Origin: Psammoneis japonica | Lineage: Eukaryota | Direction of reading: 5' to 3' | NCBI GenBank assembly: GCA_008632985.1 | Contig: QPGO01000062.1 | Location: forward strand, 124,001-188,000 | Length of the DNA stretch: 64,000 nucleotides | Position numbers and translations under genes: made by a program | The notes under the pieces: model-generated | The model's database searches: none | The model's input: only the letters and a program-made list of their open reading frames with translations | Told to the model about the DNA's origin: nothing | Shown here: in pieces, positions 26,370 to 63,045 of the stretch | Layout of the letters: the number at the start of each line of letters is the position of its first letter | How positions within the stretch are numbered: position 1 is the stretch's first letter

Positions 26370-29300
26370 GTGCCACAAAAGTGCCATTTTCACCCAATCC
26401 AGAAAAGACAGTGGAAAATTAAAGTCACACAGGAGCATGGCGAGGGACCAGCGTGCTGCTTGCGACGTGATGCTCAATTTTGCGAGCCAACAGAGCCCAT
26501 CCTTCACCATCATGCCACCAGGATCTGAGCCAAGTGATGATGGATCAATGGACAACACTTGTCTGCAAAGGATCAAAACATTTCAAGCTGTTGAAGCAGG
26601 CAGCTTGGCTGGAGGAGCCATCCAGGCATTCTGGGAGCGGCGCAGCACACTCATCAGGCTGGTGAGATTGCACAATGCCACACAACATGCAGGCGACATC
26701 TCAGCAACACTGCTTCATTGCACTCAGGCACTCTTTTTTGTCTGCATTAAAGCCACACATTCTTTGAATGTTTTTGTCACGAACCAGTTGAAATTTGAGC
26801 TCTGCTGTCTCTTTCCGTGTTGACCCCTTCTTTCCGAGCCTCCCTCAAGCAACACACTGCACCAGGTGATGTCAGAACACCTGTGTGAATGCAATGCATG
26901 TGTGACATGCACCACCTCCACTGCAATCTCTCCCACCAAGAGCCTGCCTCCTCCACCTCTTTCTGGCCCCACTTCTGAAATGTGCAAACACACATTGTGC
27001 AGTTCCTCCCAAGGCCAAGATTGCTTCAAACACATGTGTGCTTGGGCAGGTGATGACATGAGGGAGCCCCTCACCTCTGCCCCCCCACTTTGACCTTGCC
27101 TTCAAGCTTCAAGCCATGCACCTTTCAATTTGGGTCAGCCAGGTTGCCCCCAATCCAGCAGTCTGATTTGGCTGCAGGCATCCATGCTGCACTGCTGTGG
27201 GCTTCTGTGGCTGGCGCCAATCCTTCACCCCTCATGCTCCTGCACAGATGACACCATCATAGACTGCATTGAGTGGTGCTCCACAAGGTTGCGCTGGCTG
27301 CACTTCTCAATCTTTTGGCAGCTGCAGATGCTCCCCTGGGTCAACCTTGCTTCACCTGAGTCCCCCACGCTGCCAGTGACCCAGCACCAGATCTCACCAT
27401 GGAAGTCATTGAACAGTCAACTGACCGGCTGGATCTGCACTCAACCACACTTCCATCTTATCCAGCAGCCCACCCAAGCAATGCGTGCATGCCAAGTCTG
27501 CCCATCCCTCAACTTGGTTGCAGGATTTGGGCCACAAAGCATCCAGGAACAAGGTGTTTGTGCCTTGGGATGCATGTCCGCTGGTGGGGGAAACTCTTCT
27601 TGTTGATTGGCTGGCTTTTCCATGTGCCAAGTCTTGCTGTCATTGAGAATGTTGCACTTGGTTCCTGGGTTGTGCATTCCAACAAAAACTTGAGCCCAGG
27701 CACAAATCTGCAAGAGACCCAGTCATCCTCTTTGCCAGAAAAGGCTTTCATTGTGGTGGGTGGGTGTTGGATCTCATGTGACATCATCTGTCATGACCCT
27801 CGCAAACAGAGCCATCTTGCACCTCCCCAATGCCGGCTGTTTTTCCACCACTGCAGCCTCTCCTGCCAAGAGCCTGCCTCCTCCTGTTTCTGACCCCGCT
27901 CATGAAGTGTGCAAACTTGCATCATTGTTTTGTGCTGCTGCTCCTTTCGAGTCTCTGGAGGCCCCAGGTTGCTTTGCCCACCCAGGTTGGTGATGAGAAA
28001 AGCAAGCTTCTCACCTCCAGGCCTTCCACTTTAACTTTGCTGTCAAGCCCTGTGCCTCAATCCACTTGATTTGGTTGGGGGGGGGGGGGGGGGGGGCAGC
28101 ACTGGTGCCACAATGGTTGTTTGGAGGGCCAACAAACTGATGGTTGATGGATTGATTCAGAGAGGGAGCTGCTGCAGGAGCAGCCCAAAGGGGCAGCAGA
28201 TGAGGGAGGTGGCTGCAGCTGCATTCCAAGTTGTGNCTTCCTCAGATCAACCCTGCTTCATCTGATTGTCATCAAGCAGCTGGCTGCTGCAGATCTTTCT
28301 GCGTGCTTGTGCTCAAACACCACACTTCTTCCATCCAATCCAGCCCACCCAAGATGAGTGTGTCATTGAACAATGCTTCTGAGTCTGCCCATGCAATCAA
28401 TGAACAAGGTGTTTGCCTTGGGGCATGTGCCCACTGGAAAGGTCCTCTTGGCTGACTTTTCCATGCCAAGTTTTTTGCACCCCAGAGTCCTTGGGATGTC
28501 ACGCCACTTGGTTCCCAGGTTGTGCATTGCAACAAAAACCTTCATGCTCTTGAACCCGGGCGTGAATCTGCAAGAGACCTTGTCACACTCTTTGCCAGCA
28601 CTGGCCTTCATTGCCATGAGCAGGTGTCTGATTTTTTTGATGTGTGCTGCAATGACCCCCACAGACAGAGCCAGCTTGCACCCTGCATTGGGCCTGGCCC
28701 CATGGCTGCAGCCACGGCTCCTTTAGAATCAAAGGGTGGATCTGTCACAAGGTGCGCCAGAAGGACATTGAAGTCCATCACAAATCTGTGTGCTTCCAGC
28801 TTGTGTGTGGCATTGCCACAAAAGCTGTGATGTTCTCCTCTGAGCCGAGTGCTTCTCCTCATGTTTTGATGTCCTCTTTGTCACTCTGAGCTTTGATCTT
28901 TCAACACAATTCAGACATGTGCTCCACTCCACTGGCAGGCCTGATGATGCCCCTTCCAGCTGTGTGGTCTTGGCTGCATGCACTGCAGAGGGTGTCTTGC
29001 AGCCACTTGAGCTTGGTCTCTCCCTGGCAGACCCACAGTGCATGAGCTCAAGTGCCTTCATGCAAAGGGCAGACAAGTCCTCCCTGGCTGCGTCAAACTT
29101 GTGGTGGGCAGTGTCTCTTGCTGCATCAAGTGTCAAGGACCTGAACTCCAGTTTGAACAGATCCACAATGCTCCCCCCCCTCCCAACCCTGTGCAGACAC
29201 TTTGGCCCAGGCCACCAACCTGGAGGTTGACCACTGCCTGCAAGAAGAGAGTTGAAGGAGCATCTCCAAGTGCTCACCCAGCAGTTCAATCAGTTCCTTC

Positions 29301-30230
29301 TCAGTGGCTGCATTCTCCTCCCAGAGATCCATGATTGCATGCTCCAGTTCCCTGAGCAGCCTTTCCATGGTGACAAAAAGCTGAGGATCAGGGTGGGTGT
29401 CTTTGACTGCAGTGCACTCCACCTGTGGCTCCTCTCCTGCTGGGTCTCATTGTTGCCTTCATTGCTCACCAAGAGCATCTCTGTGCTCCTCCTTGCCTTG
29501 TGGTGGTGGCTTGTCTCCCACCCAAAGATGAGGTCTTTTGGATGATGTTGGCTGGAGGGAGGTGCTGAAATGCTGCTCTCCACTGCTTGGGTGGTGCACC
29601 AAGCTGGGGCAAGTAATCAGCCACTCCATGTTGGCCCCAGTTGTCCAGTGCTGGTAAAGAGAACACCGCTGGCTTGGTTCCTGTGCTTGTCTCTCACTGG
29701 GCAGCTCCTCCTGATGGCTCAAACTGGCTTGCCAAGTGTTGGACACACAGCAGTTTGGTGCTTGGCTCCAGTGCATGACCATGACTGCGCATCCATTTTT
29801 CACTCCAATCAACAAGCAGCATGAACAGATTTTGCAGCAGCATCATGGTGATGATGCACTGTTGACTGTGTTTGATGGGATCCCACCACAATTTCTTGAC
29901 AAATCAAACATGGCCACACTCACTTCTTCCAAGTGCGGTTGACAATCTTGGTTGAACGGGGAACCAGGTTGGTCCACCCAACTTGCCTTCTTCTCTGCCA
30001 GTGAGCACCAAGATGTCATCAAAAAGTGAAGGCTCTTCTGTGCATGGGAGGCAACATCAATGTGTCAACTGCTGTGCTTCTGTGAGCTGATTCAGAGTGG
30101 TGGCACACCACAGCACAACAGCTTGAGAAGCAACATCTGCTGCCACATTGCTCTTGGTGGAATTGGTGGGCATTTCATGCACGTTTGATCATGCACATTT
30201 GAACACATTTTGGCTGTGTGTTTGACCCCA
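26370..30230. pseudogene. Hypermutated TpA/CpG-depleted tract A; relic of a gene or element with an internally repeated domain
   Basis: About 8 TA dinucleotides in ~3.8 kb by eye, and few CG. Diverged internal repeats 27547-27822 vs 28402-28682 and 26928-26990 vs 27856-27915. G20 run at 28077-28096. Confidence 0.75.
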
Positions 30231-30551
30231 CGACGAAAGCAATGTTTTCAGTATAAAGAAGAGTCCGGCAAGACTGCCTGTGTCGACTTACTTCTGTTTG
30301 ACAGAGGCGATTGGTGTGCATGTATTCCACCACATGACACTCGAGAGAAAGTCCCGTACAATGATTATCCAAGCCATGCTGTCGAAGGGGGTGGCTCTAG
30401 AGAGTCTCTGTACAGTGGCCTCGCGACGCCATTAGATTTGCCTTTTGTTGCGTGAGATCACAGGGTGAACAACTTGAAGAGTAGACACGACGTTACTTAG
30501 GCTTATAGCTACATCCTTCATATTAAAACATGAGCCAACCAGTGCAATAGC

Positions 30552-31808
30552 TTATTTGTCCTCCAGGTTCATGATTCCGGGCAAGAGCTCTCCCTGCAAG
30601 AGTTCAAGAGAGGCACCACCGCCAGTTGAGACAAAGGTAACCTTGTCTTCCATACCAGCCTTAGCAGCAGCAGTGGCGGAATCACCGCCTCCAATCATTC
30701 CACAGCCGCCCGCCGCATGAAGTTCCGCGACAGCGTCAAGAATAGCGAAAGTACCCTTGCTAAAGTTGTCAAACTCAAAAACACCAGCCGGTCCGTTCCA
30801 AACAACCGTCTTGGAGGCCTTGACCTTGGATGCAAAGAGTTCCATACTAGCGGGACCACAATCCATGCCCTCCCATCCGTCGGGGATGCCTTCTTCTTGA
30901 GTGACAAGCTTGGTTCCATTAGGCTGTTCGTTTCCAAACTCTTGACCGCACAACCAATCAATGGGAAGGGTGACTTCGCAGTTGTTCGCCTTGGCCTTGT
31001 CGAGAATACCCTGGACGAGATCGGCGCCCTTTTTGTCAAAGAGGGAAGAACCAATGTCCATGCCGTAGCACACCTTTAAAAAGGTGTATGCCATGCCTCC
31101 GCAAATAATGATGCCGTCGGCTTGTTCGACAAGCTTGTCAATCAAGAGAGTCTTATCGCGAACCTTGGCTCCTCCGACAATTGCCAACATTGGCTTTTCG
31201 GGATTATCAAGGACCCGAGAAAAGGCTTGAAGTTCCTTGAGGACCAACAGACCAGCAACTTTTGTGGGCAAATCGACTCCCACCAGAGACGAATGTCCAC
31301 GGTGAACCGTACCAAACGCATCGCAGACGTAGACATCTCCGAGCTTCGTCAGAGACGCACGAAAGGCAGCAATCTCTTCTTCAGAAGGCTTGAAGGTTTC
31401 GCCGTCAGCGTTCTTACCCTTGCCTTCTTCCTCGGCGTGGAAACGAACGTTTTCGAGCAGAATAATGGATCCCTCTTCCGGGTCTGCGCAGGCAGCCTCC
31501 ACCTCGGGTCCGACACAGTCCGAAAGAAAGGTGACCTTACGCCCCATCAATTCTTCCAGACGGGTAGCGACGGGTTTCAAAGAGTACTTTGGTACAACGT
31601 TTCCGTTGGGTCGGCCCATGTGAGACATGAGTACGACCGACTTGCAGCCGTTATCAAGGGCATACTGAATGGTGGGGATGGCACCAACAATGCGCTGGTT
31701 GTTGGTGATGTTGCCTTCTTTGTCCATCGGGACATTAAAGTCCACTCTCATTATGACTCTCTTGCCCTTGACGTCAACATCTTCGATTGATTTCTTGTTG
31801 AGATTCAT
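30552..31808 (-). CDS. PGK: Phosphoglycerate kinase (no targeting presequence, likely cytosolic)
   Basis: Motifs RVIMRVDFNVP, SHMGRPNG, LLENVRFH, GGAKV.DK, WNGPAGVFE, GGGDS, STGGGASLELL. Confidence 0.97.
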   Translation of the reverse strand: MNLNKKSIEDVDVKGKRVIMRVDFNVPMDKEGNITNNQRIVGAIPTIQYALDNGCKSVVLMSHMGRPNGNVVPKYSLKPVATRLEELMGRKVTFLSDCVGPEVEAACADPEEGSIILLENVRFHAEEEGKGKNADGETFKPSEEEIAAFRASLTKLGDVYVCDAFGTVHRGHSSLVGVDLPTKVAGLLVLKELQAFSRVLDNPEKPMLAIVGGAKVRDKTLLIDKLVEQADGIIICGGMAYTFLKVCYGMDIGSSLFDKKGADLVQGILDKAKANNCEVTLPIDWLCGQEFGNEQPNGTKLVTQEEGIPDGWEGMDCGPASMELFASKVKASKTVVWNGPAGVFEFDNFSKGTFAILDAVAELHAAGGCGMIGGGDSATAAAKAGMEDKVTFVSTGGGASLELLQGELLPGIMNLEDK

Positions 31809-32523
31809 GGTTGCTTTGCCTCGCCCAATGAAGGGAAATGAGAGGTTGGAGTGAGAATCGAGAAAGATCCGGAATCTCGAAATTTGACAGAATCTCGTGC
31901 GTGGTCATCGTGTGCGTAGAGTGCCGTGTCGCGCGAAAATCGCGCTATTCTGTCTGTACTGCATCCGATCACGCATCCCGCGACGGACATTGATCGGGGG
32001 CCGTTGAAATGTCAGTGGATTCCTACCACTTATTATCCAAGTAGGATTGTTTATAGCTCGATTGCAATCTTATAACCGCTTTCATTGCATGGAAAAATAC
32101 TTAACGCCAAGCGGTCATTGCTTGCCTCACACACGTCGTATAAAAATATCTGTTGCACGTGCTTCTGGAACGGCCGGAGGAAATAGTAATTTTTGAATAA
32201 ATATTGCCCATGAACAATTTTCTATCAACCTAAGTGAATAATTGCCCTTACTTAGAAGAACTTCGGACATAGATGTAACGGACGAGCCAATTCATATTTC
32301 AACACGCTTCATCACGAGAACGTTTTACTCTACAGGCAGGAGCTACATACGGTAGCGCAGTTTTACGTTCTACGACCATGCTCCCCTTGCAGAACATGAG
32401 AGGTTACTTTTTGTGGACATGACATCCCCTCACCGGCATCGGTTTTAGACTAACGAATCTCTAGTAGATACATCGATAGCAGCAACTCCTATCGACAGCT
32501 ACAGGCAGTGTCTGTAAGACACC

Positions 32524-35200: not shown

Positions 35201-35537
35201 GGGGTGGCCACCTACCGTAGGCAGCGTAGGACCGACATCTGAAACGCGTTTGCGCTACACAGTATGGTGGTGTTCCTATTCAAAGCCTCTCTCGGCGAAC
35301 GTGTAGATATCTAGTATGTCTAACTTTTGTAAATGCAAGTCTAATTGTTACACCTTTTGGCTTAACATGGCAATCCAAATATTTCAGTTCCCACTCCAGA
35401 TACGTACCTACGGGCAGCGCAGATAGTATCCTTTTCAAAACAGAGTGCTGGAGATACAGTATATGCACGTACAGTTCAATCTAAGTGATTTCTCTGTGCC
35501 GGTACTCGATCTATAATGTCACACAGTTGCTATTTGT

Positions 35538-38996: not shown

Positions 38997-39192
38997 CCTC
39001 ATACAGTGCTGTTGAAGAGATGCACTGTAACACTTCTCAAGACACTTCTACTCATCTCATATTTCAAATACGGTAATAAGATGTACGGATGCAAACTGTC
39101 TCCATTTGCCAGTGCGCGTTTATTTATGGTAGGCCTAGGCGTAAGAACGATGTGTGCACTATTTTTTGAGGGTTTTATGATCTCGCTCCTTA

Positions 39193-39630: not shown

Positions 39631-39648
39631 ACAGATACAATAACATGT

Positions 39649-40740: not shown

Positions 40741-41019
40741 GGTGTGTCCAAAGCAATGATAACAATAAAAATAATAATGGTGCCAAAGGAAAAAGCATGT
40801 TGTGGCGGTTTTGTGCTTTTTGAATTTTTCCAGAAGAGTGAGCAACCGTCAGGGTAATTTTATTGCATATTCGCATTTGCATTTTTTCATATATTTTTGT
40901 GTTCTACGAAGCCGTAGACTTTCGTTTGATTCCGTTATGTCAAACTGTACGACCGGCGCGACCGGATGCATTCTTTGTCGACCTCTCCGACTGCTGTGCA
41001 AACAACTCAACTGGGAACT

Positions 41020-44000
41020 GGGAATGAATGACAGCTGACTGCCTTTTGACTCATGTGGCACTCTGCTTTCCAACACTGCCTGAGCACAGAAGAACTGCAT
41101 TCATTCAACATTTGTTTCAACTGTCAAACTTCTTTTTGTCCTTCCAACACACCTGAACCTTTCACATGGAAGAAATGTGAGCCTTCTTTTTTGTCCCTTT
41201 TCGCACCACTGTTGTTGCGCTGGGTGTGGGTGTGGTGTGGGGTGGGGAGATGAGTCAAAAAATGAAAGACACACAATTTTTTTTAACTGGTGCAAGCTCA
41301 GTTGGCAGTTCTCCCACAGAGAGACTGAACGGACAGAGAAGAACTGGTGCTGCAAAAAGGCTCTAAAAGGCAGAAACAGGGTTCTTTTCCCCAAGTTGTT
41401 GTGAAAACCCTGGGGCAGTTGCTGTCCTCCAGTCACCAAACTTTTGGTCATGTGGACTTTTTGGGACACCCACACCTGGAGTGGAGAGAGCAATCTTTTG
41501 TGATCAACAAGATGTCAACTGCTTTGGTTGGTGGCAGTTGGCTGGCTTTGCTGTTCTTTGAATGGGGCAGGAGCCACTGGCCAAAGCACCAGCCACAAGA
41601 AGTGCTCCTGCAGTGGCAGCAGCTGTGGCTCTCACTTGCCAAGGCTTCATCAGCTTTGACTGAGTTCCTCTCAGCTGTCTTGTGGCACTGTTTTTTCATG
41701 TGCTCTGCATTTTGATCTAACCCAGTCTGCCTGCAAGTCTGAGTTTGTCACCCGCTTGCAGCACATTTTTTTCATGTGCTCAGCATTTTGATCTGATCCA
41801 GTTGGCCTGGCTGAAAGGCCAAGTTTGGCACCTCCATGTCTGTGTGTCTGTCATTTTTGTGTCAATGCATGGATGTTGTTGCTTGTCGCTGGTGCTCCAC
41901 TCTCTCAAAAGATTGCAAAAAGGGCTCTGCACAACACAGCAGAATTTGCTTCACAGTGTGATTGCATTTTTTGTCATGACTGTGAGAATCATCATCCATC
42001 CACTGCCTCTTGATTTCTTGTCCTTGGTCCCAAACAAGACCAAAAACCAACAAAACACCACCCTCCAATCCATGCCATTCTTGTTGTTTCATTCAGACCA
42101 CCTGTCACACTCATGGTGATTGGGGTGCAAATTTGGGATGCAACTTGGGGGTGCAAAAATGCACATTGCATGAACTCACACCCAAAAATTGCAGATTGTT
42201 TTGTGCAGGTGTGGGAATTTAAAACCACCCTTCTGAAACAAAAAGATGTTTTCTTCTGACTTTGAAAAGCAGCTGGCAGGACAATGGTGCATCATCAAAA
42301 ACTCATTGTCTGCAACCCACAAGCAACCTCACGCAATGTGCCAAAGAGTTGTCTGTCATGAGTTTGCAGTTTGACCAAAGGTGCTGGAAACTTCTTTGCC
42401 GTTGCTGTGGGGCAACAAAAGCACAGGCACAATGGCCATGCTGCCAACAACAAAAAGCTTTGCTGAATTTTGCAGCCACTGATGACAATTCCTTCTGACC
42501 AGTGGTTGGAGAGAAGCAGAGCAAGGATGAGATGTGTTTTCCCAACCACTGTGGAGTGCAGATGCACAACAGTTGATTGATTTTGTGGTTGCAGGATGCC
42601 TCTGCTTCAACAAATCACAGTTGGGGCTTTTCAATGAAGTGCTGCTGCTGATGTGCACTGCAAGTGTTGCAGCATTCAACTGGAAAAGTCACCAGCCACA
42701 GGATCATTTCCTGATGGCGCCAGTGGCAGAAAGTGAGCAGCTGTCAACACTGCCATGTCCCAGCGTGCCTGCTCAGGAGCTTGTGGCTGCATTTGTTTCA
42801 CATGCACTGGTGCAACAAGAGGTGCTTGCACCATCACACATTTTGACAACATTTGCAGCTCAAAGCTGAAGGTGAAATTGTCCTGTGAGCTTGCATCCTT
42901 GACTCAGTGGTGAGAAATTGACAACACACTCACACCTCAGAATCTCAAATTAAAAAGGAGCACCTCCTGGCACCACTGATGAGCCTCCACACTGCAATCA
43001 GCCACCTGGTGGAATCTGAGTGTTGCAGTCCAGCAGTCATGGTGTCTCACACAGACACCAACAAGCAGCAGCAGTGCCAAAGTGGGGCATCATGTGGGCT
43101 GAGAACCTGCCTCACAATGAGAAAGAGAGCCCAAACCTGCCTGCTGTTGAGCATGTGATTTTTTCTTGGCACTCTTCCTTGATCAACTCATTTGGTGCTT
43201 GCTTTGTCCTCAATGCTGACATGCACTGGCTCCAAGTGGGAGACCTTGACATGCCAGAGTGGGGCAATTTTGGATGAAAACAGACCACCCAATGCAAAAA
43301 TTGCAAAAGGCTCTGCACAACAAAAATTGCTTCAAAAGCACCTTTGCAGAAAACAGTCAATGCAAAAAAGCAGCTGCTGATTGCAAGACAAGATTTGCAC
43401 TGCAATGTTCCTTGGTTGCTGCAGAATGCTTCTGTTTGTTTTTTCCACAATCTTGTGTGCACTGCAAAGCTGCTGTCATTTTTTGGCATCAGGCAAGCAC
43501 CTCAAATGCAGCCATTGTCTTCACTGGTGGGCAACTGTTGCCTGAACTCATTGAAAAAGAGCGCGCAACTTTTAAAAGCAAGTGATGCTCATCCAGAAAC
43601 TGGACCTCCAGACAGGTTTGACCAAGTGAAACAGAGAGAAAGGAAAGATGCAGACAAAACCAAAAATGTGGGTGCAACCCCATGACACAAAGACAAAGCA
43701 TGCAAGAAGGCATCCAACCAAGGCAACACCTTGTTTTCTGCAAGAACAATGGCACAGACTGCATTCTTGTTGCATGTGGTGGGTGCAATGGCACAACTGT
43801 TGTTGGGTGTTTTTGGTCAGAAGACATCAAAATTTGACCAAAAAATTAGACCAAAAAATGCTGGGGATGAATGAAAAATGTGCACAACCATGACACAAAG
43901 CTGAGGCACAAGGCATTTGAGGCAGAAACTCATGGCACAAGAGCAACAACACACTTTCTGTGTTTGTTGCAATGAATCTGGTGGTGCTGTTGTTGCCAGG

Positions 44001-47429: not shown

Positions 47430-48860
47430 CTTGTTGCTTGTTGCTTGGTCACTCACAGGTTGTTGGTGCTTGTTTCTGGAAAGAGATCAGGTGTCGCACT
47501 CCACCCGTGCAAGAACTGCAAAGTGTGAGCTGAAAGGAATGCATGAGACTGGCATTTTGTTTGAAGCCTCAAGATGGATCATCGCTCAATCAAATGCCCA
47601 AGGTCAGAGGCAGCCACAACAGTTGGCAAGCAGGTGTTTTCCAACTTCCAACATTGTTGAATGTGCCAACATGTTGCCTCAGTTTCTCTTGCATCCTTTG
47701 CATCTGTCGCTTCAATCTCTGGAACCAGCCGGAGGAAATTGGAGCTGAGCCTGCCAAGCCTGCAAAACCAAAAACAAAGCAGAAAAAGTCAAACTCTGCA
47801 AAGATGAACAAGAACAGCAACAAAGAGAAAACGTCCTCATCTTCAAGAGCATCACAAGAAGCATCGAGAGGGAATGTCATGCCTTGTCTAAAACTTCACT
47901 TTTTGTCTGTTCTGATGCTTCATCTCCTCTCTGCACCTTGCATCCATGTTCAGCATGGCAACAGAGCTGAAGGGCAAGCAATGGCTCAGGGCTGATGTGC
48001 TGAGCACACTTGATTGCATGGAATGGGTTTGTTTTGAAGCTTTCAAATGGTCCACCTTTCGCGGCAATGCAGTGTCATCTCATGTTGAGCACTGCCTTGC
48101 TGCTTCGCATGGAAGAGCTTGTGCTCATGGAGAAAAGACTCGACAGCTCCTGGCGGCTCCTTGACCTTGGAAATTGGCGGTGAAGCCCAAAATTCCAATG
48201 GCACTTTGCCACAGCAATCTTCACACATCCACAATGGGGCTGGCAGCAATGTTCACAACAGCGGCACTGCTTCAGTGTCCAACAGTGAGAATGGATGAGG
48301 AAACGGTGGTCGACCAAAGCACTCCCACAAAGATGTGGTGGCATCTGGCAAATCTGAAGAGATCGCTGTTGTTGTGTCAACACTGGCAAAAGCACATGCA
48401 CAGCAATTGGTGATGGTGGCGTGTTGAGTTGCATCCTCTTATGGATGAGAAAATGGAGTGCTGTTGTCCAAAGACATTTTGATTGCACACCAAGCTCGTT
48501 CGGCGGCTGGCTTGGATCCAGGTTTCTTCTTGCAATCGAGGCCGGCATCGACTGCTGACATTGTGGCTGATGATTCTCAAGCCTTGGCAGCAGCTCTGAA
48601 TGCAGTCAACTGTTACAAACTGGTGAGGAATGCTGCCCTTGCAGCACAAGAGGAGTGCAACCAACACCTGGAAAGGAGCTTTTGTTGCCCATTTTTGGGT
48701 GTTTTCTCTCACATCTCTTGCCATTGACACGCTTGTCACAGCAAAATACGGATGTCATGCATTGACATTTTTGGCAGGAAAAGGTTTGGTGGCAAGGTCA
48801 AACATTGGTTGTTGCCGCATCATGGTTGGTTTGTTGTTTCCGTCTTTTCTCGCAGCAGCA
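47430..48860 (+). pseudogene. Hypermutated tract containing a plus-strand gene relic
   Basis: ORFs 47946-48164 and 48174-48413 are in the same frame, separated by a TGA (possibly from CGA). TA nearly absent. Flanked by related ~90-bp direct repeats. Confidence 0.55.
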
Positions 48861-49118
48861 TGAATGTCGTAAAACGTCTGGCCGTCGTACGTACGAATTG
48901 AACGTATGGCGTTTTCTCCTCTCCTTTTCCTCTTTTTTTTTTTCATAAAATCGGAGCTACCTACCGGTACCAAAACTGCCTGAGCAAATCCATTCCAACA
49001 CATCATTGACATCTCAACTCTCAATTGTAAAACCTCCTTCGTGTTCTGCCCACACACCTGAACCTTTTACATGGAAGAAAGATGGTGCTTGCGTTTCACT
49101 GCAGACAGATGAGTCAAC

Positions 49119-51746
49119 ATGAAAGACGGTCAACAAGACGTGTCAATGATCATGCGGACCACGTCTGATTCTTTCGAGGAGAACATGGAAAGAGCAAACG
49201 CTGATGTGCATGCCAGTGAACCAGACAATGGCAACGAATGTTCAACTTCTTCTGATTTGAACAAAATTATTGAGGATGAAAGTGACAACGAAAGCGATGC
49301 CGAGCGGGCGTCGACAACAACAAAACTGCCTGCTTCTGGTGCATCTAAAAAGCAGAAGGCTTCCAACACCGAAAGTGTGGTTGCACCGCGAGGCTTGTTA
49401 CAGGAGCCTGGAGGCGTAGCAGTAACCCCAGGGACCACATCAAGTCCAACAACAAGCACAACCAAGAAATCAGATTCTTACAAGAAAGCATCCCAAAAAC
49501 AGACACCAAGAGGGTGGGCGTTTCGTCCGTCCTCACAAGTCTCAGTTCCTGGTGCGGTTGCGGTAGTTCCTGGGACGACGCACGACAGTGGCAACAACCT
49601 TCGAGCAAACTCGGACTCAATCTTGATGCAAAAGCACCTTCACAATCGTCGTGCGAATCTCAGACAAGAACATAAACAAGCCACCTCATTTCCCTTCAGT
49701 CTCCGGATAGTTTTTCAACGGGCTCTGTTCACGAAACATCTCTTGTAGTTTCTACGACAGATGGGGGCCCAGATGGGTTGGAACCTCCGAGACTTCTGGC
49801 CGAAAAGCATTCTCTTGGATATTATCGGAAGAATAGTCGTGAGCCAACTAGTCAAGAACGAAGCGTTTCCAGGTTTGAGCCAGCTGCACAAGGCAGTTTT
49901 GTGTCTACGGATGGGGCAACTCAGCTCGTCAGTAGCCCATCAATGGATGCTAGGTCTTTGTCAGGAGGCGTGCAATCCACTCAAGAAAGCGAACCGGGGA
50001 CGTTAGAGTATCAAAGGCCGACGTCCTTGAGATCATCCCTCCGATCTAGTTTAACTCGCCGTACGTCTTTGGAACAGGATGAACGTAAAGATGCTACTCT
50101 TGTGAATGCCACACTTGTTGAAGAAAGGGATGACTCACCAGTGTATGCTGCTGAAGCGGTCCCAGAAGAACGCATCCGACGAAGGCGTAGAAGAGTGCGC
50201 GCTGCCGGTGTAATCTTGATCGGGGCCCTCATCACTACGATTGTTCTCGTGACGACAAAACCTAGAAGAGGCGACGACGATGGAAGCAATGGTTCAAAAT
50301 GCCAAATCCCCCTGGAGGAACAAAAGATCACTACGCAGTGTGCATGCCAAGGCGAAATATCTATGATTTCGCGTGATGCTCTAGAATTTGGTGATGTCAT
50401 GCTGAACCTGCTTGTCGATAGCGAGGTTCTGCCTTTTAATTTCAGAGAGAACTTCAATGAAACCTCATGCCTCCCGGAGAATCAGGCTCTATGGTGGATT
50501 GCTGATCCAAATAATGTTGACATTCCCAGAGACTCATTTGAACAAGTTGTATTGAATCGAAAGTTTGAACATCAGATTATTCAACGCTACGTTCTTGGTT
50601 TGCTATATCTATCCATGGGGGGCAAACAATGGACTAGGCAAGCGAATTGGCTCAGCACTGCACCTGCTTGTACGTGGTTTGGACTTGTTTGCACGGAAGC
50701 GTCACGTTTGGCGCTGTTGGAACTACCTGCCAATGAATTAAGTGGTAGCATTCCAATCCAAATTGGGAATCTTTTACATCTGCAGAGCATTAATTTTTCG
50801 GGGAACCAACAATTGACAGGTAGTCTCCCATCGGAAGTTTCGAAGATTAGAGGCTTGCGTAAGTGCAAGCGAAGTGCTGTTATTCTGTCTCAATTTACCG
50901 TTTTTCTACCGCTTACGACCAATTTAATCGGTGTCTTGCCTACCCGCTCACATCGTAGGGAGCCTCAAGATTAAAAACACCGGACTCAGCGGAGAAATTC
51001 CAGTGTCGTTGAAGGAGAACGAGGTTCTCAGTACGTACTTGGGCCATTGTGTTCTCTTCGTTTTGATTGCCCATGTATGTCAAACTTTTGTGACTGTTAC
51101 TGATTGAATGCTCTGCTCTCTCTAGCAACGATTACGTTGTTCAATAACTCACTCTCTGGAGTGTTTCCTTCCGAGGTGGCTCAGCTGCCACTACTTCGTA
51201 AGTATCGATTGAGCAAATTGCCTTAATATGCTGTCGATTGTGCCTCACACTTACTAGTGCTGCATTCCTGTTTGTGTTTCACAATACGCAGAAATCTTTG
51301 ACGTTGCAAACAACCAGTTCACCGGGTCGCTGCCTACTGAAATTGGAAAGATGACGAATCTCGGTATTTTGGGCATTGACAATAACGATTTCACGGGAGA
51401 AATACCAAGTGAGATTGGCAACGCCCAGAGCCTTCAAATTATCAAAGCGACGAACAATCGATTCGGTGGTACGATACCCAATGAAGTGGGTAATTTAAAG
51501 TTTCTAGGAGATTTGGAGCTAATGGGCAATAATTTTACGGGTCAAATTCCAAGCAGCTTTGCGAACCTCACAAGACTTTCCCTCATAAGCATATCAACAA
51601 ATCTAGCTCAAGGATTTGTTGCCAAGACACTTTGCGATACTCTTGACATGCTTGAAGCAATTTTTCTGGACTGCAACGATACACAATCGTTCTGCTCTTG
51701 CTGCTTTTGCAAAGAGTCAGAATTAGGCAGTTTCACTTCATTCTAA
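49119..51746 (+). CDS. Type II membrane LRR receptor-like protein (copy 1)
   Basis: Disordered N-terminus with PGGVAV/PGAVAV, RRRRR then TM, QRYVLGLLY..W..NWLS..C.WFG..C cap, plant-type LxxNxLSGxIP LRRs. Frameshift at ~49695. Introns 50859-50958, 51031-51125, 51198-51291. Confidence 0.85.
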
Positions 51747-51812
51747 GTTTGTACCGTAAGTTAAAATTGCCATACGAATTTTTTGTCTCTATTTTTTAAA
51801 TAGCGATAGCAA

Positions 51813-52230
51813 CACACCGTGGCATGCGTGTTTTGAGCAAGAGCTGCTGCTGGCATCAGAGTGCCGTTGTTGCCCAGCAAACACCAGCTGCCCATGTAAA
51901 TTTTGGCGAGGGTAGGGCGATTGTTGCCCAATTGCTGACAGACTCTTTCTCAAGCACCATGATGCATGAGCTTGCCCAAAAGACAGAATGACATCATTGG
52001 ATCACATGAATTTCACAACAGCAAACATGGTGAGAGAAACACTTGTTTTGATTGATGGAGCAGGAGTGGTTCATTGCAAACAGAGAAAGGAGAGATGCTG
52101 GATGTGAACCCAAGCAGCACAAATTGCTGTGTGTTGACAACAGAGAGGTGGTCGGGAACAGTGAGACACTTGAAAGACATGCAGGCATCATGTGCACAAA
52201 GAGAGCAATCAAAGTTCCTCACCAAGAACT
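51813..52230 (-). pseudogene. Truncated, hypermutated paralog of the 5' part and upstream region of the RNI-like LRR gene at 60217-61221
   Basis: Colinear with ~61010-61420, e.g. caagcaccatgatgcatgagcttgcccaaaag (51951) vs caagcgccgtgatgaacgaacttgcctaaaag (61144). Confidence 0.85.
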
Positions 52231-52239
52231 GTCTTGTTG

Positions 52240-55200
52240 TTGAGCTTTGAAAAGCAGAGGGCACACCAGATGTGAATCTGACAAAAAACTGCATTTGTTT
52301 CTTCATGCTTCATTGCAAGAAACATGTGTGGTCTGCTCCATGGATGCCTCACTTGCCACACAATCACAGCAAGCTCTCAGACTGCATTTGTCATGGAAAG
52401 CCATCTTGGCACCCCACACCTGCTGTGCTTCTTTTGCTGCAACTCTGGCGAAGCTCCATGAAGCTCCATGTGTCACGCCAGCAATTTATGACTGCCTTGT
52501 TGAGCCCAGAGAAGAGAGCAAAGATGCAAATCTCAACAACATGCAGGTTCATTTTTCACTCAATCACAAAGAGGTCTTTCTCTTCTACAGACATTTCAGG
52601 TTTCACAAGCAGTGTGTCAAGTCATGAGACTGCATTTGTCATGAACTTCATGATTTGCACCCCCAGCAGATGTCTCAGCCACATGAATGGTGCACAGACC
52701 CCAAACAAGACAGAGGCAGAATGACAACAAGCAGCTTTGCAGTCTCAGCAAGTTTTCAGTCTTTGTCCATTCTAACCTGCACACTGCAAACAAACTGTCT
52801 GTCTGCTGGCAACATTTTGCTTTTGAGCTGTGAAGTGTCAGCTTGGACAATGTGCATTTGTCAGGTGGAGCTTTGTCTCCTGAGCAGCTGTTGTTGTTCA
52901 GACTTTCACTGTGTGTCACTGGTCTTTGGCACTGTTCTTTTCTTTTGATTTAGCAGTGGCAACCTTTGCTGCTCTGCCATGCCACTGGCAATGCTGTCTT
53001 TGTTTGCAACTCTTGGAAAGCTGTCCATGTTTGTCCCCTGAATTTGTTGTGCTGGACATTTGAGAATTTACATGGTCCATGGATTGGACACAAAATCTCC
53101 CACTGTTCTCTTGTTGCCATGTTGCTGGAAACATTGTCAAGTTGCTTTTTCTAAAGATGCTTGTCTGCCTTTGAGAGTGTCTTGTTTTAAATCAAGCCAC
53201 TCTGTTGAACTCAGGTTGTTGGTGCAAACAAACCAAAATTGTTCTGGGCCAGGCAGTTGTGCATGGTGACTTCACAGCATTCACACACCACCATGCCCTG
53301 CTTCAATCCACCACACACAAGAGACAGATTCAAGTGGTCCCCCAACTTGTGTGCAGGGCAATGCCATGCACCTGCTTTGGCTTTGCAAGCTGCACAATGC
53401 ATTGGCAAACCTCCAACCATTGCAAAGCAGCACATCCATCTGCTTCCATGGTTGTTGGTCCATTCTGCACAACCAGCAAATTCAACAGTGCTTGATTGTG
53501 GGCTTCAATCAATGCCCTCCTCTTGCACCACTTTTTGAGGTTCACTTGCACACATCTGGTGTCCTTTGTCCAGGCCAAACATTTTTTTGCATTGGCAACC
53601 AACCAGCACCAGAGAAACTGGACAACCAACAATTCCTTGTTCAAACTGATCCATGGCACCAAACAATGGAGACATCGTGCATCAAACAAAGATGTGTGCA
53701 ATTTGTGTCTTCATTGTCATTCTCCCAAATCCAAAGAGTGCAGCAATGTTGTGAGACTCTGTTGTGAGAGGGTGCCAGCCACTTTTTGCCTGCTTGGTGT
53801 GTTGCCCCTCTTGGTTGCTTGCCATGGCATCATGCACCACTGCCATTGATGCAAAATGTCTCTCACAGCAGAGTGGTTGGCTGTGGGCACTGCCAGCAGC
53901 TGTTGTGACTCAGGTGTCTCCACGAACCTGTGTTTTGGCAATGACAAGTGGTGCAGTTTGCTTGCAACACCTTTGACTGCCATTTGCAGGCCTTGCAGCT
54001 CTTGTCATCAAAGCCACAGTTCTGGTTTTGCCTGGGCAAACATCAAGATTGATCACATGATGTTCAGCAGCACCAAAAAAAAAACAAGAGACTTGGAATT
54101 TGTTGGGTTTGTCTTTGTTGTGCTGCCTCATGAGGCAGAACCAAGAAACCAACAGCTCTGATGCAGGGCAATGCTGTGAAGCATTGCACTCATTCAGTGC
54201 TTTTTTGGAGTTGCTGTGCAGTGCTTCCCAAATTTGTGTCAGCACCATCTGAGACACACGTGTTTTTGGATGCCCAGTCACTTGCATCAAGCGTGGCCTC
54301 AATGTCACTCTGTTTCCACCAACACAGACAGACAGCCAAAGATTGTCTGTGCAAAAGCACACTTTGTGGCAACCTCTGTTTTGGCATGAGCCATGGCCAA
54401 AATGTTCTCAGCAATCCTCAAGAAGAAGCAGTGCATTTCTCCACAGAGAGATGTGCCCCATCACTTGACTCCACAGCACACCTGACAGGTCAAAGTGAAG
54501 TGTGGGTTTTGCCATTTCTTGCAATGGTTGTTGGAGCCACAAGCAAGAGTGACAAGAAGTGACACATGAGTTTGACCACCAGCTGCAGAGGAGTTGAGAA
54601 CAGTCCAACAGATCATTGAATTGCTTTGTGATGCTGGGGTGCAGCATCAGCCCTGACAGGCCATCACGCACACTTTGTGAGGCAGCAACCAGAGAAGACA
54701 CATCTGTGCTCACCGCAAAACCTGCTCAAGTTGTCTCCTGCAAGATTGTTGATGCAAATGTTGTTGCCACAGTTGACATCTGCTTTGTCTTCATGTCATC
54801 ACCAGCCTTTGCTTTGGGTTCAGAAAAAGTTTGGCTGACATTGCATGTCCTCAAGTCAATGGATTCTTGCCAACCCCATGTGCCATCAGCTTCATCCAAA
54901 TCTTCTCCATTGCCAATCTTTGTTCTCAGTGGAGCAGGCTGCACAACTGCTTGAAGCTTTGTTGTTGGGAACAATTGAGCACACACTTGATGTTGCTGTT
55001 GCTCATGTGGCGCACCATTCATTGGACTGAGTGAGTGGTTTCTTGCTTGCACTGGAACAAAAAGCCATGCCTTTGCAACCCTGTTGCTGGCAGCAGTTTG
55101 TCAACATGCAGAAACACATTGACAACAAACAACTGAGCCAGAAGAGGAGTGTGTGCTGGGTTTGCAGATGTTGTGCTGGTTTGTGACAAACGGTGATCTC

Positions 55201-57295
55201 TGTTGTGTTGTCATCACCTCCTGCGTTGCCACTTCCAGGTGAGACATTTTTGCACCATTGCTTGGCACAAGCTCAGAGCCAATGTTTTGGGTCTTGCCTG
55301 TTGGCAAATGGCACCCAAACATGAGAAGGGTCAATTCTTGCATCTTGTAACTCAAGCCACATGATTTTCAAAATGTTGCCATTTGATTTCTCAGACACTT
55401 CACAATCTCCCCCAACGTGCACAAACTGAGAAGTTGTTGATTGTTGGCATGAAGCAGCCAATGTTCAGGAAGGGCACACATCAAATCTGTGATCACCACC
55501 AAATTTGCTTGGCAAAGCTCTGGGGCAAACTCTGGCTCTTTTGGTGGCGAGACTCTGACTGCTGGGAGGCACAAAAGCAACCAATGTCCAGCATTTCCAA
55601 CCAAGTTTGCTGCATCTGACATTTCCCCTTTGCAATGTCATCTCTGGCACATGGCACCCTGAGGGTTGCTTGGAGCAAATGTTCTGCTCCATTTTGCAGG
55701 GCTGCCCATCAGATCTGCTGTGTTGAGGAATTTTGGCCTTTGGTGAAAGAATTGAGCAAAATTGCTGCACTTTAGAAAAGGAGTCATCAGCCATGAGATC
55801 AATTTTTGCAGCTCAAGTGTCGACGTCTTTGCTGTGTTTGGAGATTTGGGTGCACAGTCTGTCTGTTTTCATTGACTTGCTCTGTCTTTGAGGATTTTGA
55901 AAGTTTGCAGACCACATGAAGCCGGCTCCACAAATTGGTGCATCAGATGCAACTGGCATCAGCTTTTGGGAAAAAAGTCAAAAGTGAGCACATTGCAAGT
56001 GTGCCTCAAGTGAGCCCAATGAAGAGTGTGCTGGCTGGGCCAATCCTTGCATGGAGTTCTGCAGAGGCCAGTGCAGCCAACAGCGTGCTGAGCACATTTT
56101 GCCAGTGCATTGTCCTCTCATTCCATGCAGCAATGTGCAGATTGATGATTTGTGCATGAACAAAGATGCAGGGAAAAAATGCCACAATCACTTCTAAGAA
56201 CTGCTTTTTGCAAAATTTGTGTGGAAAAAACCACAAAAAACAACTTTTCAGCCAGAGCTGCTTTTCGCAGTGTGGGGTGTGGCACACAGTGAAAACAACT
56301 GAGCAACATTGGCAAGAGCTGGCTGACAAACTGGACAAGCAACAAAAGAATGTGCAAATCTGACAAGTGTGCAAAATTTTAAATGAGGCATGCAGAGTTG
56401 CAGGGAAAAATTGTCAGGCACCTTGCGCTCAACACATTGCATGATTTCCCCTGAGTTGCGAGCAGTTGCGTGCAATGATGTGAAGGAATTTGCGCTGACT
56501 TTTTTGTGGGGCTCAACATTGGACAACAAAGGCAACCTCTCCTGCAGAAAGAGGGTGTGGAACATGCAGTGCAAAGAACCTCAAACTTCACTTTTTGAAT
56601 GCTCTGGTTGCGACCAAGACAGAGTGCCGCCAAAAGACTGCAGGAATTGACAAAGAAAACTTTTGCGTCACATTGTAAAACACATGATGGAACTTTTTGG
56701 GAGACAAAACAATGATGCTGAGTTGATTTTTTGACAGGACTCATGTTCGTTGTCAAGTGCGACCAAACCATGACTTGCACAGAAATGTGCAGAACATGTG
56801 CCAAGCCCTGTGCTCTGGTTGCGATCATAGCTCCAAAAAGATCAAAGCAAATGAGCACAAAACTTTTGCTGAAAATGGCAAATTGCATGACAGAACTTTG
56901 GGAGATAAAACCGGGTTGAAATTGATGGCCAGATTGAACTTGCCGAATGGAATGTGAAAGGGCAATGTCCCTGCTTGTGCACACGAACCACCTGGTGGTC
57001 CGTGTGCATTTTTGGGTGCACACGAACCACCTGGTGGTTCGTGTGCACCCCACGCAAAATGCTGCGTAGATTTGTACCGAATTAAATCTGAGTGCCTACA
57101 TCTGCAGTAGGATCTACGTGAAAACGCACTCGAAACAGTGTCCACCGAGCCGGCAGTCATGTGCCGGGCGTCGTGAAAAGTATTTTATGTCTGAGAAAGA
57201 GTTCGTCAGGGCCGGCGAACAACACCCCTCTACGATGCGACTGGTATAAAATGTACGTAAATGCACAGGAACCAGCATGTGGTTCGTGTGCAAAT
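52240..57295 (-). mobile_element. Hypermutated piggyBac-like transposon relic (tract C)
   Basis: Minus-strand SWFCLMRQHNKDKPNKFQV..HVINLDVCPGK (54146-54028) resembles piggyBac transposase RQY.K.KP.K...Y..N..VY.GK once H/C->Y is restored. Palindromic repeats lie at the right end. Boundaries approximate. Confidence 0.6.
56978..57292. repeat. Three copies of a ~31-37-bp palindrome (tgcacacgaaccacc-t-ggtggttcgtgtgca)
   Basis: 56978-57008 (one mismatch), 57014-57050 (perfect 18-bp arms), 57262-57292 (degenerate). Confidence 0.9.
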
Positions 57296-57477
57296 TAGAG
57301 CTCGTGAAAAATAAGCAGGGATATAATGCGAGTATTCCTGCTGGTACGAAGTGCCTTCTCTGCGCTGTCGCTGCGTGACACACGACTGAAAACCGCACGT
57401 GGCCGGTAATAAAACTATCGGTTCATTTTTTGGAAGAAAGATGATTTTTGCGTTGCACTGCAGATACAAGAGCCAAA

Positions 57478-60149: not shown

Positions 60150-60216
60150 GTTTGTAAATTGCGTAATTTTGTCTATAATAAATAACGATAGCATAATGTA
60201 CGGCGGATTCTCTATT

Positions 60217-61221
60217 CTAAGCCTTGGTGATATGAGGGGCTCCTTGAAGAAAGTAAAAGATCAACTCGGGTTGATCCTGAACGCCGGCCAAGACTTGAGC
60301 CCAGAGAGAACTCGGCGCGCCTTCGGCACTCAAGAGTCGTCGTCCGGCTCTGTTTAGCTTGAGGTAAATGTCCAGTTCGTAGCGCAACTGTGGTTCATCG
60401 AGCTGGCCAAGAAACATCTTCTCGACGTAGTAATTCTCTTTCATGCCATTCCTGATAATGGCAGACGCTCCGTTCGCTCCAAAGCAGTTGTTCTGCAACC
60501 ACAAGCGCTTGAGGCTCCGGTTCATGACAAGCATCACCCCAAATGCCTCGGCACCCTCGTTGCCAATTTCGTTGAGACGCATATCAAGGACTTGCAAGAC
60601 GGAATTCGTAGCAACGCAATTGGCGAGCTCTTTAGCTCCATCATCACCAATGTTATTGCCTCCTAGATTGATTTCGCAAAGAGTCTGGTGCGGAGCAGCC
60701 AGAGCGAAACCAAACGCTTTGGCTCCTTCATTGCCAATGCGATTTCCGTAGAGATCAAGCACTTCAAGTGACCTGCTGTACTCTACTCCTCGAGCAAGCG
60801 TCATTGCTCCACACGGACCGATACTGTTCTTGGAGAGATTGACTCTCTTGAGAGTCCGATTCATACGAAGAGTGGCTCCCAACCACGTGCCCCCCTCATC
60901 ACCAACAGCGTTTCCTTCCAACCGAAGAATCTCTATAGACGTGTTATCTTGAAGCATATCAGCCAAAGCCATGGCGCCGGCATTGCCAATGCTGTTGTAG
61001 CACAAGTACAACACCTTAACATGTGTGTTTTGAGCAAGAGCTGCGGCCAGAGCCATGACGCCATTGTCTCCTAAACGCCAACCGCCCATGTAAAGTTCGG
61101 TAAGGGTGGGGTCATTGTTACCCAGGCGCTGACAGACTTCTTTCAAGCGCCGTGATGAACGAACTTGCCTAAAAGTAGGTACGGCGTCATTGGAGCGTAA
61201 GAGTTTCGAAACAGCAGCCAT
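60217..61221 (-). CDS. RNI-like (NLRC3/RanGAP-type) leucine-rich repeat protein
   Basis: 28-aa repeats LxxLxLxxNxIGxxGAxxLAxxLxxN; C-terminal LNRAGRRLL..LWAQVL..IFYFL. Start placed at MAAVSK. Confidence 0.88.
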   Translation of the reverse strand: MAAVSKLLRSNDAVPTFRQVRSSRRLKEVCQRLGNNDPTLTELYMGGWRLGDNGVMALAAALAQNTHVKVLYLCYNSIGNAGAMALADMLQDNTSIEILRLEGNAVGDEGGTWLGATLRMNRTLKRVNLSKNSIGPCGAMTLARGVEYSRSLEVLDLYGNRIGNEGAKAFGFALAAPHQTLCEINLGGNNIGDDGAKELANCVATNSVLQVLDMRLNEIGNEGAEAFGVMLVMNRSLKRLWLQNNCFGANGASAIIRNGMKENYYVEKMFLGQLDEPQLRYELDIYLKLNRAGRRLLSAEGAPSSLWAQVLAGVQDQPELIFYFLQGAPHITKA

Positions 61222-61744
61222 GGCGAGAGAGATACTTGGTTTTCTTGATGGAGAAGGGGGGATTCGTTGCAAAGAGAAAGGAGAGAAACCGGGTAAACCC
61301 CGGTAGCACAAGTCACTGCTGACACCAGAGAGGTGGTTAGAAGAATGAGACACTTGAAAAAGGCACAGGGCACAGGCATCAGAGCAGACCCAGAAAAGAA
61401 TCGAAATCGCTCGCCAAGAGAGAATGACGAAAGTTGACACCCAATCGTGTGGTGGGGCTTCCAGAAAAGGAAAGGTGTCATGATACAAGACTCGATCCCT
61501 TAAACTCAGACTACTTTGTTCGCGTTTAAATGTCGTAGCACGACTAATCAGAAATACGTACTCGCTTCTGGTACTCTTCTTGCGTACCTTCTACAGAGCA
61601 CTCGCATTGGGGTGGTGGTTTGGACACTCGGTTGCGACCAATTTTTCGACACCGCAACAGGCAAACAAAAAGACACGAGAAGAAGCGCCCAACGACGCCT
61701 TGTGCCACTGTTTCTTTCACTGGAAAACGAATTGTTAGAGTTCA

Positions 61745-63045
61745 CACCAATTCGATCACTCAAAGTGTTGGCAAGGATGCTGACATGGAGTGATCAACTG
61801 AAGAAGAAATGCAAAAAGAAGCAGGACTGAGATTTCCAAGTGCTTCAGACGGCGCTGGATGCGCCATGCTCTTGCTGGCGACAAAGCATGTCATCGGTGA
61901 TTTGGCTTGCTGGCAACATTGGGTGATTCATCTGGGTTCCTGCTGCTCTTCTCTCTGTCCAAGACCTGTTGCTGACAACCACATCTGTGTGCTGTTTCTT
62001 GCCTGATTGGCGTTGGCGAAGGAGGGGAGCACACAGAGCAGAGAGTGAGAAAAAGCGCTGCCTTGGCAAAGGATGTGTCAAGTGCACTGTCTTCCACAAA
62101 CAGGATGGGCTGAAGACTGCTCTGTCACAACCACCTCTGACTCCCCTCTTCTGGAGGCATGCCGCCTTTGCTTCTTTGTCCCTTGTGTCGACGTCGTCCA
62201 GCGCCAAGCACAGCTGGCATGGTGCTGTCTCAGGAGCCTGACTTGAGCATCAGCATTCTCCATGGAAGGCTGCATTGGCTGTGTCAAAGACATTCTCAGA
62301 GGGCTGGCTTGCTCAGTTGTTAGAGCTTTTGCAGGTTTTTCTGAAATGGCGACATTGCAGGCAGCGGGAACAGCAGCACCAGGGATGCTGGGCTTGGACC
62401 TTCACTTGAGGCCAGCACTGGCAACCCACCTCATGGCTGCACCCAGTGCCATTTTCAGTTTGAGCAAGAACACTCTGCAGATGTTTGTTTGAACAATTTG
62501 GGAAGCAGCAGGCACACCCAGATTGTTGTCCATGATGAGCGATCGCTTGTTGTGACTGTGGAGACAACACCCAGCACCCCCTCCTCCAGACAAGCAATCT
62601 CAGCTTGATCATCACATTGGGAGAATCAGGCAATTTTCATTTTCCAACCAATGCCTGCTGTGCACATGGCTTCAGGATGCAGAACAGGATAGTTGGGTGC
62701 AGAGCCCCCATTGTTGCCAGCTGCAGCTGTCAAGAGGAGGGTGCCATTGTCACAGACTTTCTTGTGCTGTTTCAGAATGATTTGTTGTGATCCTCTCCAC
62801 CAAGACTCACACTTTTGACATTGGCTCTCGCGCCCACCATTCACAGCACAGCTTTCAAGAGCATCAAGCATGCAAGACTCAGCTCCTTCCCCCCTTTTCC
62901 AATGTGGAATTTGAGTGGTTTCACATTGCCCATGACACCAGCAATGCCTTGTGATTCTTGCCACCAATGGCGTCTGTTGAGACAGACAGGAAAAAGAACA
63001 GCCTTCTTGCTCTTTGAAAAGGTGCAGAGTCCAACAGAGGCATTC
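61745..63045. pseudogene. Hypermutated TpA/CpG-depleted tract D
   Basis: Only about 2 TA in ~1.3 kb, reduced CG, and broken Tyr-free ORFs. Confidence 0.7.

Follow-up and report, generated by a model that had tools for sequence, protein, structure and literature searches.

In fungi, repeat-induced point mutation (RIP) changes C to T mainly at CpA, creating TpA; it requires duplication and a sexual phase, and relies on a methyltransferase of the RID/DNMT4 type and a premeiotic stage. Regional hypermutation at TpA itself has been reported once so far, in a single chlorarachniophyte, Bigelowiella natans, without an identified enzyme. According to that preprint (bioRxiv 10.64898/2026.01.13.699255), 231 of the 302 nuclear mutations in mutation-accumulation lines fell in two integrated, silent viral regions, and 230 of these 231 were A>G or T>C changes, each of which lay at a TpA. 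The TpA rate was ~6e-7 per site per generation, ~1000 times background, and episodic, with mutations in 11 of 15 lines only. The preprint further reports 124 genomic clusters of TpA-poor, CpA+TpG-rich windows and 324 coding sequences in which TpA has a frequency of 0.0018, and proposes an ADAT2-like adenine deaminase. Here we describe a 64-kb stretch of contig QPGO01000062.1 from Psammoneis japonica (64,000 nucleotides, hereafter the window), in which five discrete tracts have lost nearly all of their TA and most of their CG dinucleotides. The initial annotation of this DNA took the pattern to be a candidate for a previously undescribed system; for the loss of TA (the TA arm, as opposed to the CG arm) this has been overtaken by the B. 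natans report, which describes TpA-only A:T>G:C hypermutation and holds the same adenine-deaminase idea.

The tracts were delimited by a rule of at most four TA plus CG per 200 bp, with expected counts taken from the dinucleotide frequencies of neighboring DNA, and sum to 15,941 bases. In total, 42 TA remain where the flanks predict ~630 (0.067), and 137 CG where they predict ~830 (0.165), the deficits of the individual tracts having Poisson probabilities of 1e-10 to 1e-73. Tract A (26464..30253), between an open reading frame (ORF) of 751 amino acids and the phosphoglycerate kinase (PGK) gene, keeps 8 TA of 150 expected and 33 CG of 198 (survival 0.053 and 0.167). It holds 440 TG and 416 CA; its TA-free sequence starts at 26420, CG is sparse from 26483, and there is one N, at 28236. 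Tract B (40958..45402), which is single copy, keeps 10 of 176 TA (0.057) and 28 of 232 CG (0.121), and tract C (47362..48840), an erased copy of a moderately repeated family, 5 of 58 (0.086) and 28 of 77 (0.363). Tract D (51866..56905) is again single copy, its first ~300 bases being a fragment of a leucine-rich repeat (LRR) gene, and retains 15 of 199 TA (0.075) and 31 of 263 CG (0.118). The corresponding figures for tract E (61880..63066), just upstream of the intact LRR gene, are 4 of 47 (0.085) and 17 of 62 (0.275). All five tracts are intergenic and end 150-300 bases short of intact genes (PGK, LRR gene).

In 500-bp windows, observed/expected ratios (o/e) inside the tracts are 0-0.08 for TA, 0-0.4 for CG and 1.6-2.0 for TG+CA, compared with ~0.55, ~0.9 and ~1.2 outside. 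Counted over six frames, TAA and TAG together stand at 3.7 per kb, down from 36, Tyr codons at 1.5 per kb, down from 44, and TGA at 48 per kb, up from 39. The PGK gene (30552..31904, minus strand; Pfam PGK, 2.4e-145), separated from tract A by 300 bases, is normal in TA and CG, as are five ordinary stretches of intergenic DNA elsewhere in the window (TA o/e 0.44-0.79, CG o/e 0.86-0.97). Sliding-window counts and the 200-bp rule thus agree with the initial annotation, which had placed five TA-poor, CG-poor and TG/CA-rich tracts here among genes of ordinary TA and CG content, and had seen Tyr codons and TAG/TAA stops vanish in all six frames.

Tracts B and D have raw-read support. A public deep run (X1) contains 88% of the sampled words of 40800-50700, and contigs were built from its exact 31-letter words over a region that covered tracts B and D (A and E lay outside it). 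One contig of 6129 bases covers 40000-45712 (tract B) and another of 5304 bases covers 51695-56997 (tract D), each with a single difference from the window and a word depth of ~70, equal to that of the single-copy flanks; they run across three tract edges. X1 may be the source sample of the assembly, and hence no independent individual, and its contigs rule out an artifact of assembly or polishing. The sole difference in tract B is at 42288, where the contig reads C and restores a CG; this may be an error left in the assembly or a change that happened very recently. A joint at 45749>48768, with 28 letters only on one side, was not used. A second run (X2) gave no cover over tracts B and D and says nothing on expression.

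The share of pyrimidine-purine steps among dinucleotides is 0.2407 in the tracts and 0.2409 in the flanks, the fall in TA+CG (0.0815) is balanced by the rise in TG+CA (0.0813), and base composition is the same in both. TpA is down 17-fold, to a frequency of 0.0023, and AA and TT are not lowered; a model of the polymerase-eta kind, acting at WA motifs, was rejected on the latter ground. When TA and CG were converted in flank DNA by simulation, its trinucleotide profile came closer to that of the tracts, the correlation going up from 0.77 to 0.96. Change of TA to TG or CA, and of CG to TG or CA, on both strands equally, suffices for the dinucleotide shift.

The direction of change could be read from homologues, which were searched for in purine/pyrimidine coding, as transitions cannot disturb it. 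The start of tract D (51800-52230) aligns to 60995-61420, the 5' part of the intact LRR gene (60217..61590, minus strand; Pfam LRR_6, 1.9e-38), an unmutated paralogue that polarizes the changes. Twelve of the 16 aligned CG sites of this paralogue are changed in tract D, to CA (8) or TG (4), with none in the opposite direction, and 6 of its 9 aligned TA sites are changed, to CA (5) or TG (1); its TG is kept at 17 of 19 sites and its CA at 16 of 24. When only single changes with a conserved neighbor are counted (51945-52230), the polarity is 17:0 (12 CG and 5 TA sites, all TG or CA in tract D; p 1.5e-5). Tract D begins near 51920-51945, within the LRR homology, and the change was therefore made in place and not brought by an insert. 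Tract C has a word depth of 325-665, above that of single-copy DNA, and among the variants listed for 47612-48299 (a sample of 40 of 678) its other copies carry TA or CG at 6 of 11 places where the window has TG or CA, with TA in relatives at 47636 and 47667. Within tract B, 41070-41275 has a homologue of normal composition at 48970-49130. Tracts B and C also align over short lengths, at their left ends, to normal DNA at 48861-49130, with too few TA/CG sites to count. Taken together, the mass balance, the polarity against a normal paralogue and the TA/CG-bearing relatives of tract C support an origin of the tracts by transitions at TA and CG, not from native composition, as the initial annotation had held.

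TG and CA outcomes are balanced over the tracts (1861 vs 1792) and random along them (runs-test z -2.1 to +0.6). Their dispersion in tracts A-D (0.7-1.6) is no higher than in controls, and neither the runs test nor the dispersion revealed strand-coordinated clusters in these four tracts. The events strike either strand, site by site, rather than in long single-strand sweeps. Tract edges resolve to ~50-100 bases. Each of the five tracts has a TA survival within 0.053-0.086, while CG survival takes values of 0.12, 0.12, 0.17, 0.28 and 0.36. The right edge of tract B continues into a TA-only zone (45403..45661) with 0 TA against 10.2 expected (p 3.6e-5) and 11 CG against 13.5 expected, and beside tract E the segment 61737-61879 has 0 TA against 5.6 expected and 4 CG, a loss of TA without comparable loss of CG.

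A tract of the same kind was found elsewhere. Among 80 loci obtained when metagenomes were scanned with PGK, one (L038) is a 12.4-kb contig from a microbial mat with an interrupted PGK gene (66% identity), an HA-domain gene and a DUF6824 gene. It holds a 1.65-kb tract with 6 TA (survival 0.088) and 39 CG (0.48) and with pyrimidine-purine totals kept, as well as a zone at 5101-5700 depleted in CG only, with 3 CG (0.10 of the contig average) and TA at 0.97, which suggests decay by methylation without the TA process. Comparable tracts were not found in the other 79 PGK loci (515 kb). The contig appears to represent a second, diatom-like organism with the same kind of tract, and the pattern is not private to one assembly. 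As for the window, a prolyl-hydroxylase-like ORF nearby has raphid pennate diatoms as all three of its organism-named relatives (Seminavis, Nitzschia and Mayamaea; 44-45% identity); the window also has an HA-domain gene, and the named relatives of its PGK are dinoflagellates and diatoms. Judged by these relatives, the host is a diatom, of the pennate type, in keeping with the earlier assumption. Either arm can occur alone. The separability of the two arms is supported by the constancy of TA survival, the variation in CG survival and the existence of TA-only and CG-only zones.

Surviving TA stands chiefly in TTAA and CTAA contexts, and CG survives most often in GCGC (0.49) and least often where A or T flank it, the numbers being small in both cases. 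Spontaneous deamination is slower in GC-rich surroundings, and the GCGC-rich survivors fit such a process. By arithmetic from the counts, to lose ~94% of TA while other transitions reach ~10%, TA in the tracts, and nowhere else, must have changed at no less than 10-25 times the background rate. The results support a requirement of the TA arm for a chemistry other than cytosine deamination, the second chemistry that had been postulated from the outset.

The initial annotation supposed that the target was transposable element (TE) chromatin. Tract C does belong to a repeat family and is the sole tract that does. Of the 204 stop-free tract ORFs of at least 60 amino acids (39 of them in tract A), none has a credible Pfam match, two matches at E 0.007 being under the family cut-offs, and the longest ORF of tract C had 0 matches among 1.84 billion representative proteins. 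Two viral-contig scans using neighboring ORFs returned no relatives. Coding periodicity was not found in the tracts (purine/pyrimidine period-3 power at most 7.7, compared with 22-44 over PGK), in a test of low sensitivity in which some real ORFs are weak. A transition-tolerant local alignment of each tract against the window found no homology among the tracts and recovered only the two known homologies. A TE or viral origin of the tracts is at most putative, and the LRR fragment in tract D is a piece of a host gene.

The account that we favor, with moderate confidence, combines TpA hypermutation of the B. natans kind with CG decay by deamination of 5-methylcytosine (5mC) in the same domains. 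The tracts would be resident, mostly non-coding chromosomal DNA, rewritten in place by two context-specific transition processes. By analogy, the TA arm would be a process of the same type as the TpA-only A:T>G:C hypermutation of silent viral DNA in B. natans: an enzyme would alter TpA, in the simplest case by deaminating adenine to inosine in either strand, within a domain of silenced chromatin, and would here have reached saturation. The CG arm would represent ordinary deamination of 5mC in the same silenced, CG-methylated domain; it would be the slower of the two, and its completeness would follow the age of the tract. The end result would be permanent inactivation, with Tyr codons and TA-containing signals lost and TGA stops increased.

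Several points weigh against this account. The silenced domain and its methylation are what we infer, and the TA arm is likened to the B. natans process by its signature alone. The targets in B. natans are viral, while no viral or TE relic was found in the tracts: none of the 204 ORFs yields such a protein relic, and a host LRR gene fragment lies in tract D. The polarity of the TA changes is read from few sites, five in the paralogue alignment and the two listed in the relatives of tract C. After simulated conversion, the tracts still show an excess of GC steps (0.076 vs 0.060) and fewer AT steps (0.052 vs 0.065), a residual difference that may reflect ancestral composition or a further process. 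Finally, the edges of TA and CG depletion agree within ~60 bases at 8 of 10 edges, which a single shared agent would fit.

Such an agent could be a DNA deaminase of dual specificity, of the ADAT2/3-TadA type, with A at TpA and C at CpG as its substrates, or a 5-methylpyrimidine oxidase acting on T at TpA and on 5mC at CpG, with products that mispair. We consider this unlikely. Besides the shared edges, it is favored by the amphioxus enzyme BjADAT2, reported to deaminate both A and C in DNA, the latter in a 5'-TCG-3' context (PMC10354150), by Trypanosoma ADAT2, cited likewise in the B. natans preprint (bioRxiv 10.64898/2026.01.13.699255), and by the CG survival in the tracts, which is lowest in TCGT and TCGG (0.04-0.06). 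However, TCG is not uniformly struck (survival of 0.23 in TCGC and 0.15 in TCGA), and the reported adenine context of the amphioxus enzyme is GAA, not TA. A constant TA survival next to a fourfold-varying CG survival, together with the TA-only and CG-only zones, also speaks against one agent, as does the lack of a C>T excess in the two B. natans hypermutable regions, where the preprint gives A>G or T>C for 210 of 211 and 20 of 20 mutations.

Passive, long-term decay of old junk DNA under a context-biased background spectrum, with no targeting, is in our judgment distinctly improbable. It would be in keeping with tracts that show neither coding periodicity nor protein relics, with TG/CA outcomes distributed at random, as expected of independent events over time, and with the fact that the part of tract D that could be aligned is old, showing 21 transversions and 27 other transitions in 258 sites. 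Nevertheless, the five other intergenic stretches hold their TA and CG, and the tract edges are sharp, one of them falling inside homologous sequence. Passive decay would also need the elevated TA-specific rate in the tracts only, and in another alga, B. natans, a regional 1000-fold TpA rate is reported as directly measured (bioRxiv 10.64898/2026.01.13.699255).

The locus had been put forward as a candidate RIP-like system, a proposal that did not hold up. In a true system of this type, duplication would be sensed and both copies mutated, perhaps via the RID-related DNMT4; it could claim the membership of tract C in a repeat family, the duplicated gene fragment at the start of tract D, and the many diatoms that carry a DNMT4 grouping with fungal RID, the function of which is given as not known (PMC9998398). 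The window contains its own control for duplication as the trigger, a segmental duplication of 49061-52228 against 57420-61420 whose right end enters tract D (copy 1, 49061..51753, plus strand; copy 2, 57420-60156), with 95% identity in purine/pyrimidine coding over 2481 bases. Its 2.4-kb core (49300-51750 and 57716-60153), at ~90% identity and 8 kb apart, is untouched, and the TA and CG changes between the copies are symmetric (21:19 and 15:14), which shows that duplication alone has no erasing effect; the LRR pair is mutated in one partner only. The duplication carries a gene without an assigned family (ORFs of 432 and 629 amino acids), and in copy 2 an extra 800 bases complete the LRR gene that copy 1 lost.

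Repeats of the highest copy number are spared as well. R1 (45700..47340), between tracts B and C, has a word depth of 1600-2800 compared with 70 for single-copy DNA and a normal composition (TA o/e 0.79, CG o/e 0.95); it has no Pfam match, and one of its ORFs, searched against protein collections, gave no relatives. R2 (56977..57292) adjoins the right edge of tract D and resembles a miniature inverted-repeat transposable element, with three 32-nt palindromic units (GTGCACACGAACCACCTGGTGG...); it is normal in composition at a depth of ~1980 (bin 56675-57341), roughly 28 times single copy. As R1 and R2 are normal and tracts B and D are single copy, copy number is not the targeting cue. A:T>G:C changes are moreover beyond the reach of cytosine methyltransferase chemistry, and the B. 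natans process acts, as its preprint reports, on single-copy DNA in asexual lines. A true RIP-like system is accordingly very unlikely.

The two remaining alternatives are weaker still. Hyperediting at the RNA level, by an ADAR-like enzyme on double-stranded RNA combined with C-to-U editing, the edited RNA then being reverse-transcribed and returned to the genome by reinsertion or gene conversion, could appeal to the preference of ADAR-type enzymes for a 5' U, as discussed in the B. natans preprint; the absence of strand-coordinated runs, with dispersion ~1 as in controls, the edge of tract D within contiguous homologous DNA, and a ~94% conversion, well above the levels typical of hyperediting, make it highly improbable. 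A sequencing or assembly artifact, for which one could note that X1 is perhaps the same sample as the assembly, or foreign DNA natively avoiding TA and CG, is hardly credible, given depth-~70 contigs that traverse tract edges, the same pattern in the independent metagenome assembly of L038, and a polarity and mass balance that indicate conversion from ordinary host sequence.

Elsewhere in the window, the intergenic stretch 37695-39648 has lowish TA (o/e 0.44; 0.20-0.29 in 38001-39000) with normal CG, which might mark a TA-only zone that is weak or at an early stage, or just local composition. Positions 1-6481 consist of sixty tandem copies of a 108-base (36-codon) unit with a GC content of 0.58 and a GC skew of +0.3. 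This array has long open frames on both strands, one of which matches the Yae1_N and Romo1 glycine-zipper profiles, and is probably one giant repetitive coding gene. A 1468-amino acid ORF built of internal 231-351-base repeats (11913-16319, minus strand) resembles, in purine/pyrimidine coding, the 751-amino acid ORF beside tract A (23204-25459, minus strand), and neither has a Pfam match. The cover provided by X2 is patchy and gene-centered; one X2 contig of 2414 bases lies on 48964-50858 and 51292-51665 and leaves out 433 bases. X2 may thus be RNA, and the skipped segment an intron, though the run is labelled 'DNA?'.

The saturated end-state seen in a diatom, and its counterpart in a second diatom-like organism, raise the prospect that the process is widespread among major marine algae, and it may extend beyond viral inserts. 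One could go further and picture TpA-directed DNA editing of silenced chromatin as an old defense module common to the Stramenopile-Alveolate-Rhizaria lineages (Rhizaria and stramenopiles), coupled in diatoms to the CG-methylation and silencing machinery, such that a marked domain, be it a virus, a transposon or a stray gene fragment, loses both self-complementary pyrimidine-purine steps completely and cannot be revived; we offer this tentatively, as a possibility that falls short of probable. Diatoms offer transformation, CRISPR knockouts, methylomes and chromatin maps, with which the enzyme, the choice of domain and the holding of edges a few hundred bases away from essential genes are testable. 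Such tracts also conceal transposon and virus relics from homology searches, bias gene finders based on dinucleotides, and could silence transgenes permanently.

Set beside the known systems, the tracts share with fungal RIP a regional, irreversible transition mutagenesis that spares neighboring genes. They differ from it in losing TpA, in having A:T>G:C as half of their changes, and in leaving duplications alone. Among the ADAT2/3-TadA deaminases, one fold can act on both A and C in DNA; the amphioxus enzyme has a reported cytosine preference for TCG, while its reported adenine preference, GAA, is unlike the TA of the tracts (PMC10354150). CpG decay by 5mC deamination, as in vertebrates and in the TCG hypermutation reported for basidiomycetes (PMC3318451), has in common with the tracts the change of CG to TG/CA on both strands, the variable completeness and the GC-flanked survivors, and accounts for the CG arm only. 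The closest likeness is with B. natans, where, according to the preprint, TpA likewise changes to TpG or CpA on both strands, in discrete regions of an otherwise normal genome, in single-copy DNA, and with TpA depletion matched by a gain in CpA+TpG down to a similar floor (0.0018 there, 0.0023 here). The host there is a chlorarachniophyte, on the rhizarian branch, and here a diatom, a stramenopile; the targets reported there are integrated giant-virus and virophage DNA still with 3.3-9.2% TpA, while the tracts here are 1.2-5 kb long and saturated, and a piece of a host gene lies among them. The present tracts have lost CG too, while a term look-up in the main text of the preprint found no mention of CpG, diatoms or stramenopiles; nor was a description from diatoms, or of a dual loss of TA and CG, found in the literature searched, including the available text of PMC2806351 and 10.1101/2025.10.24.684338. 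By this comparison, the TA arm would be of a kind already described, and what the present locus adds is its occurrence in a diatom, its saturation and the co-erasure of CG.

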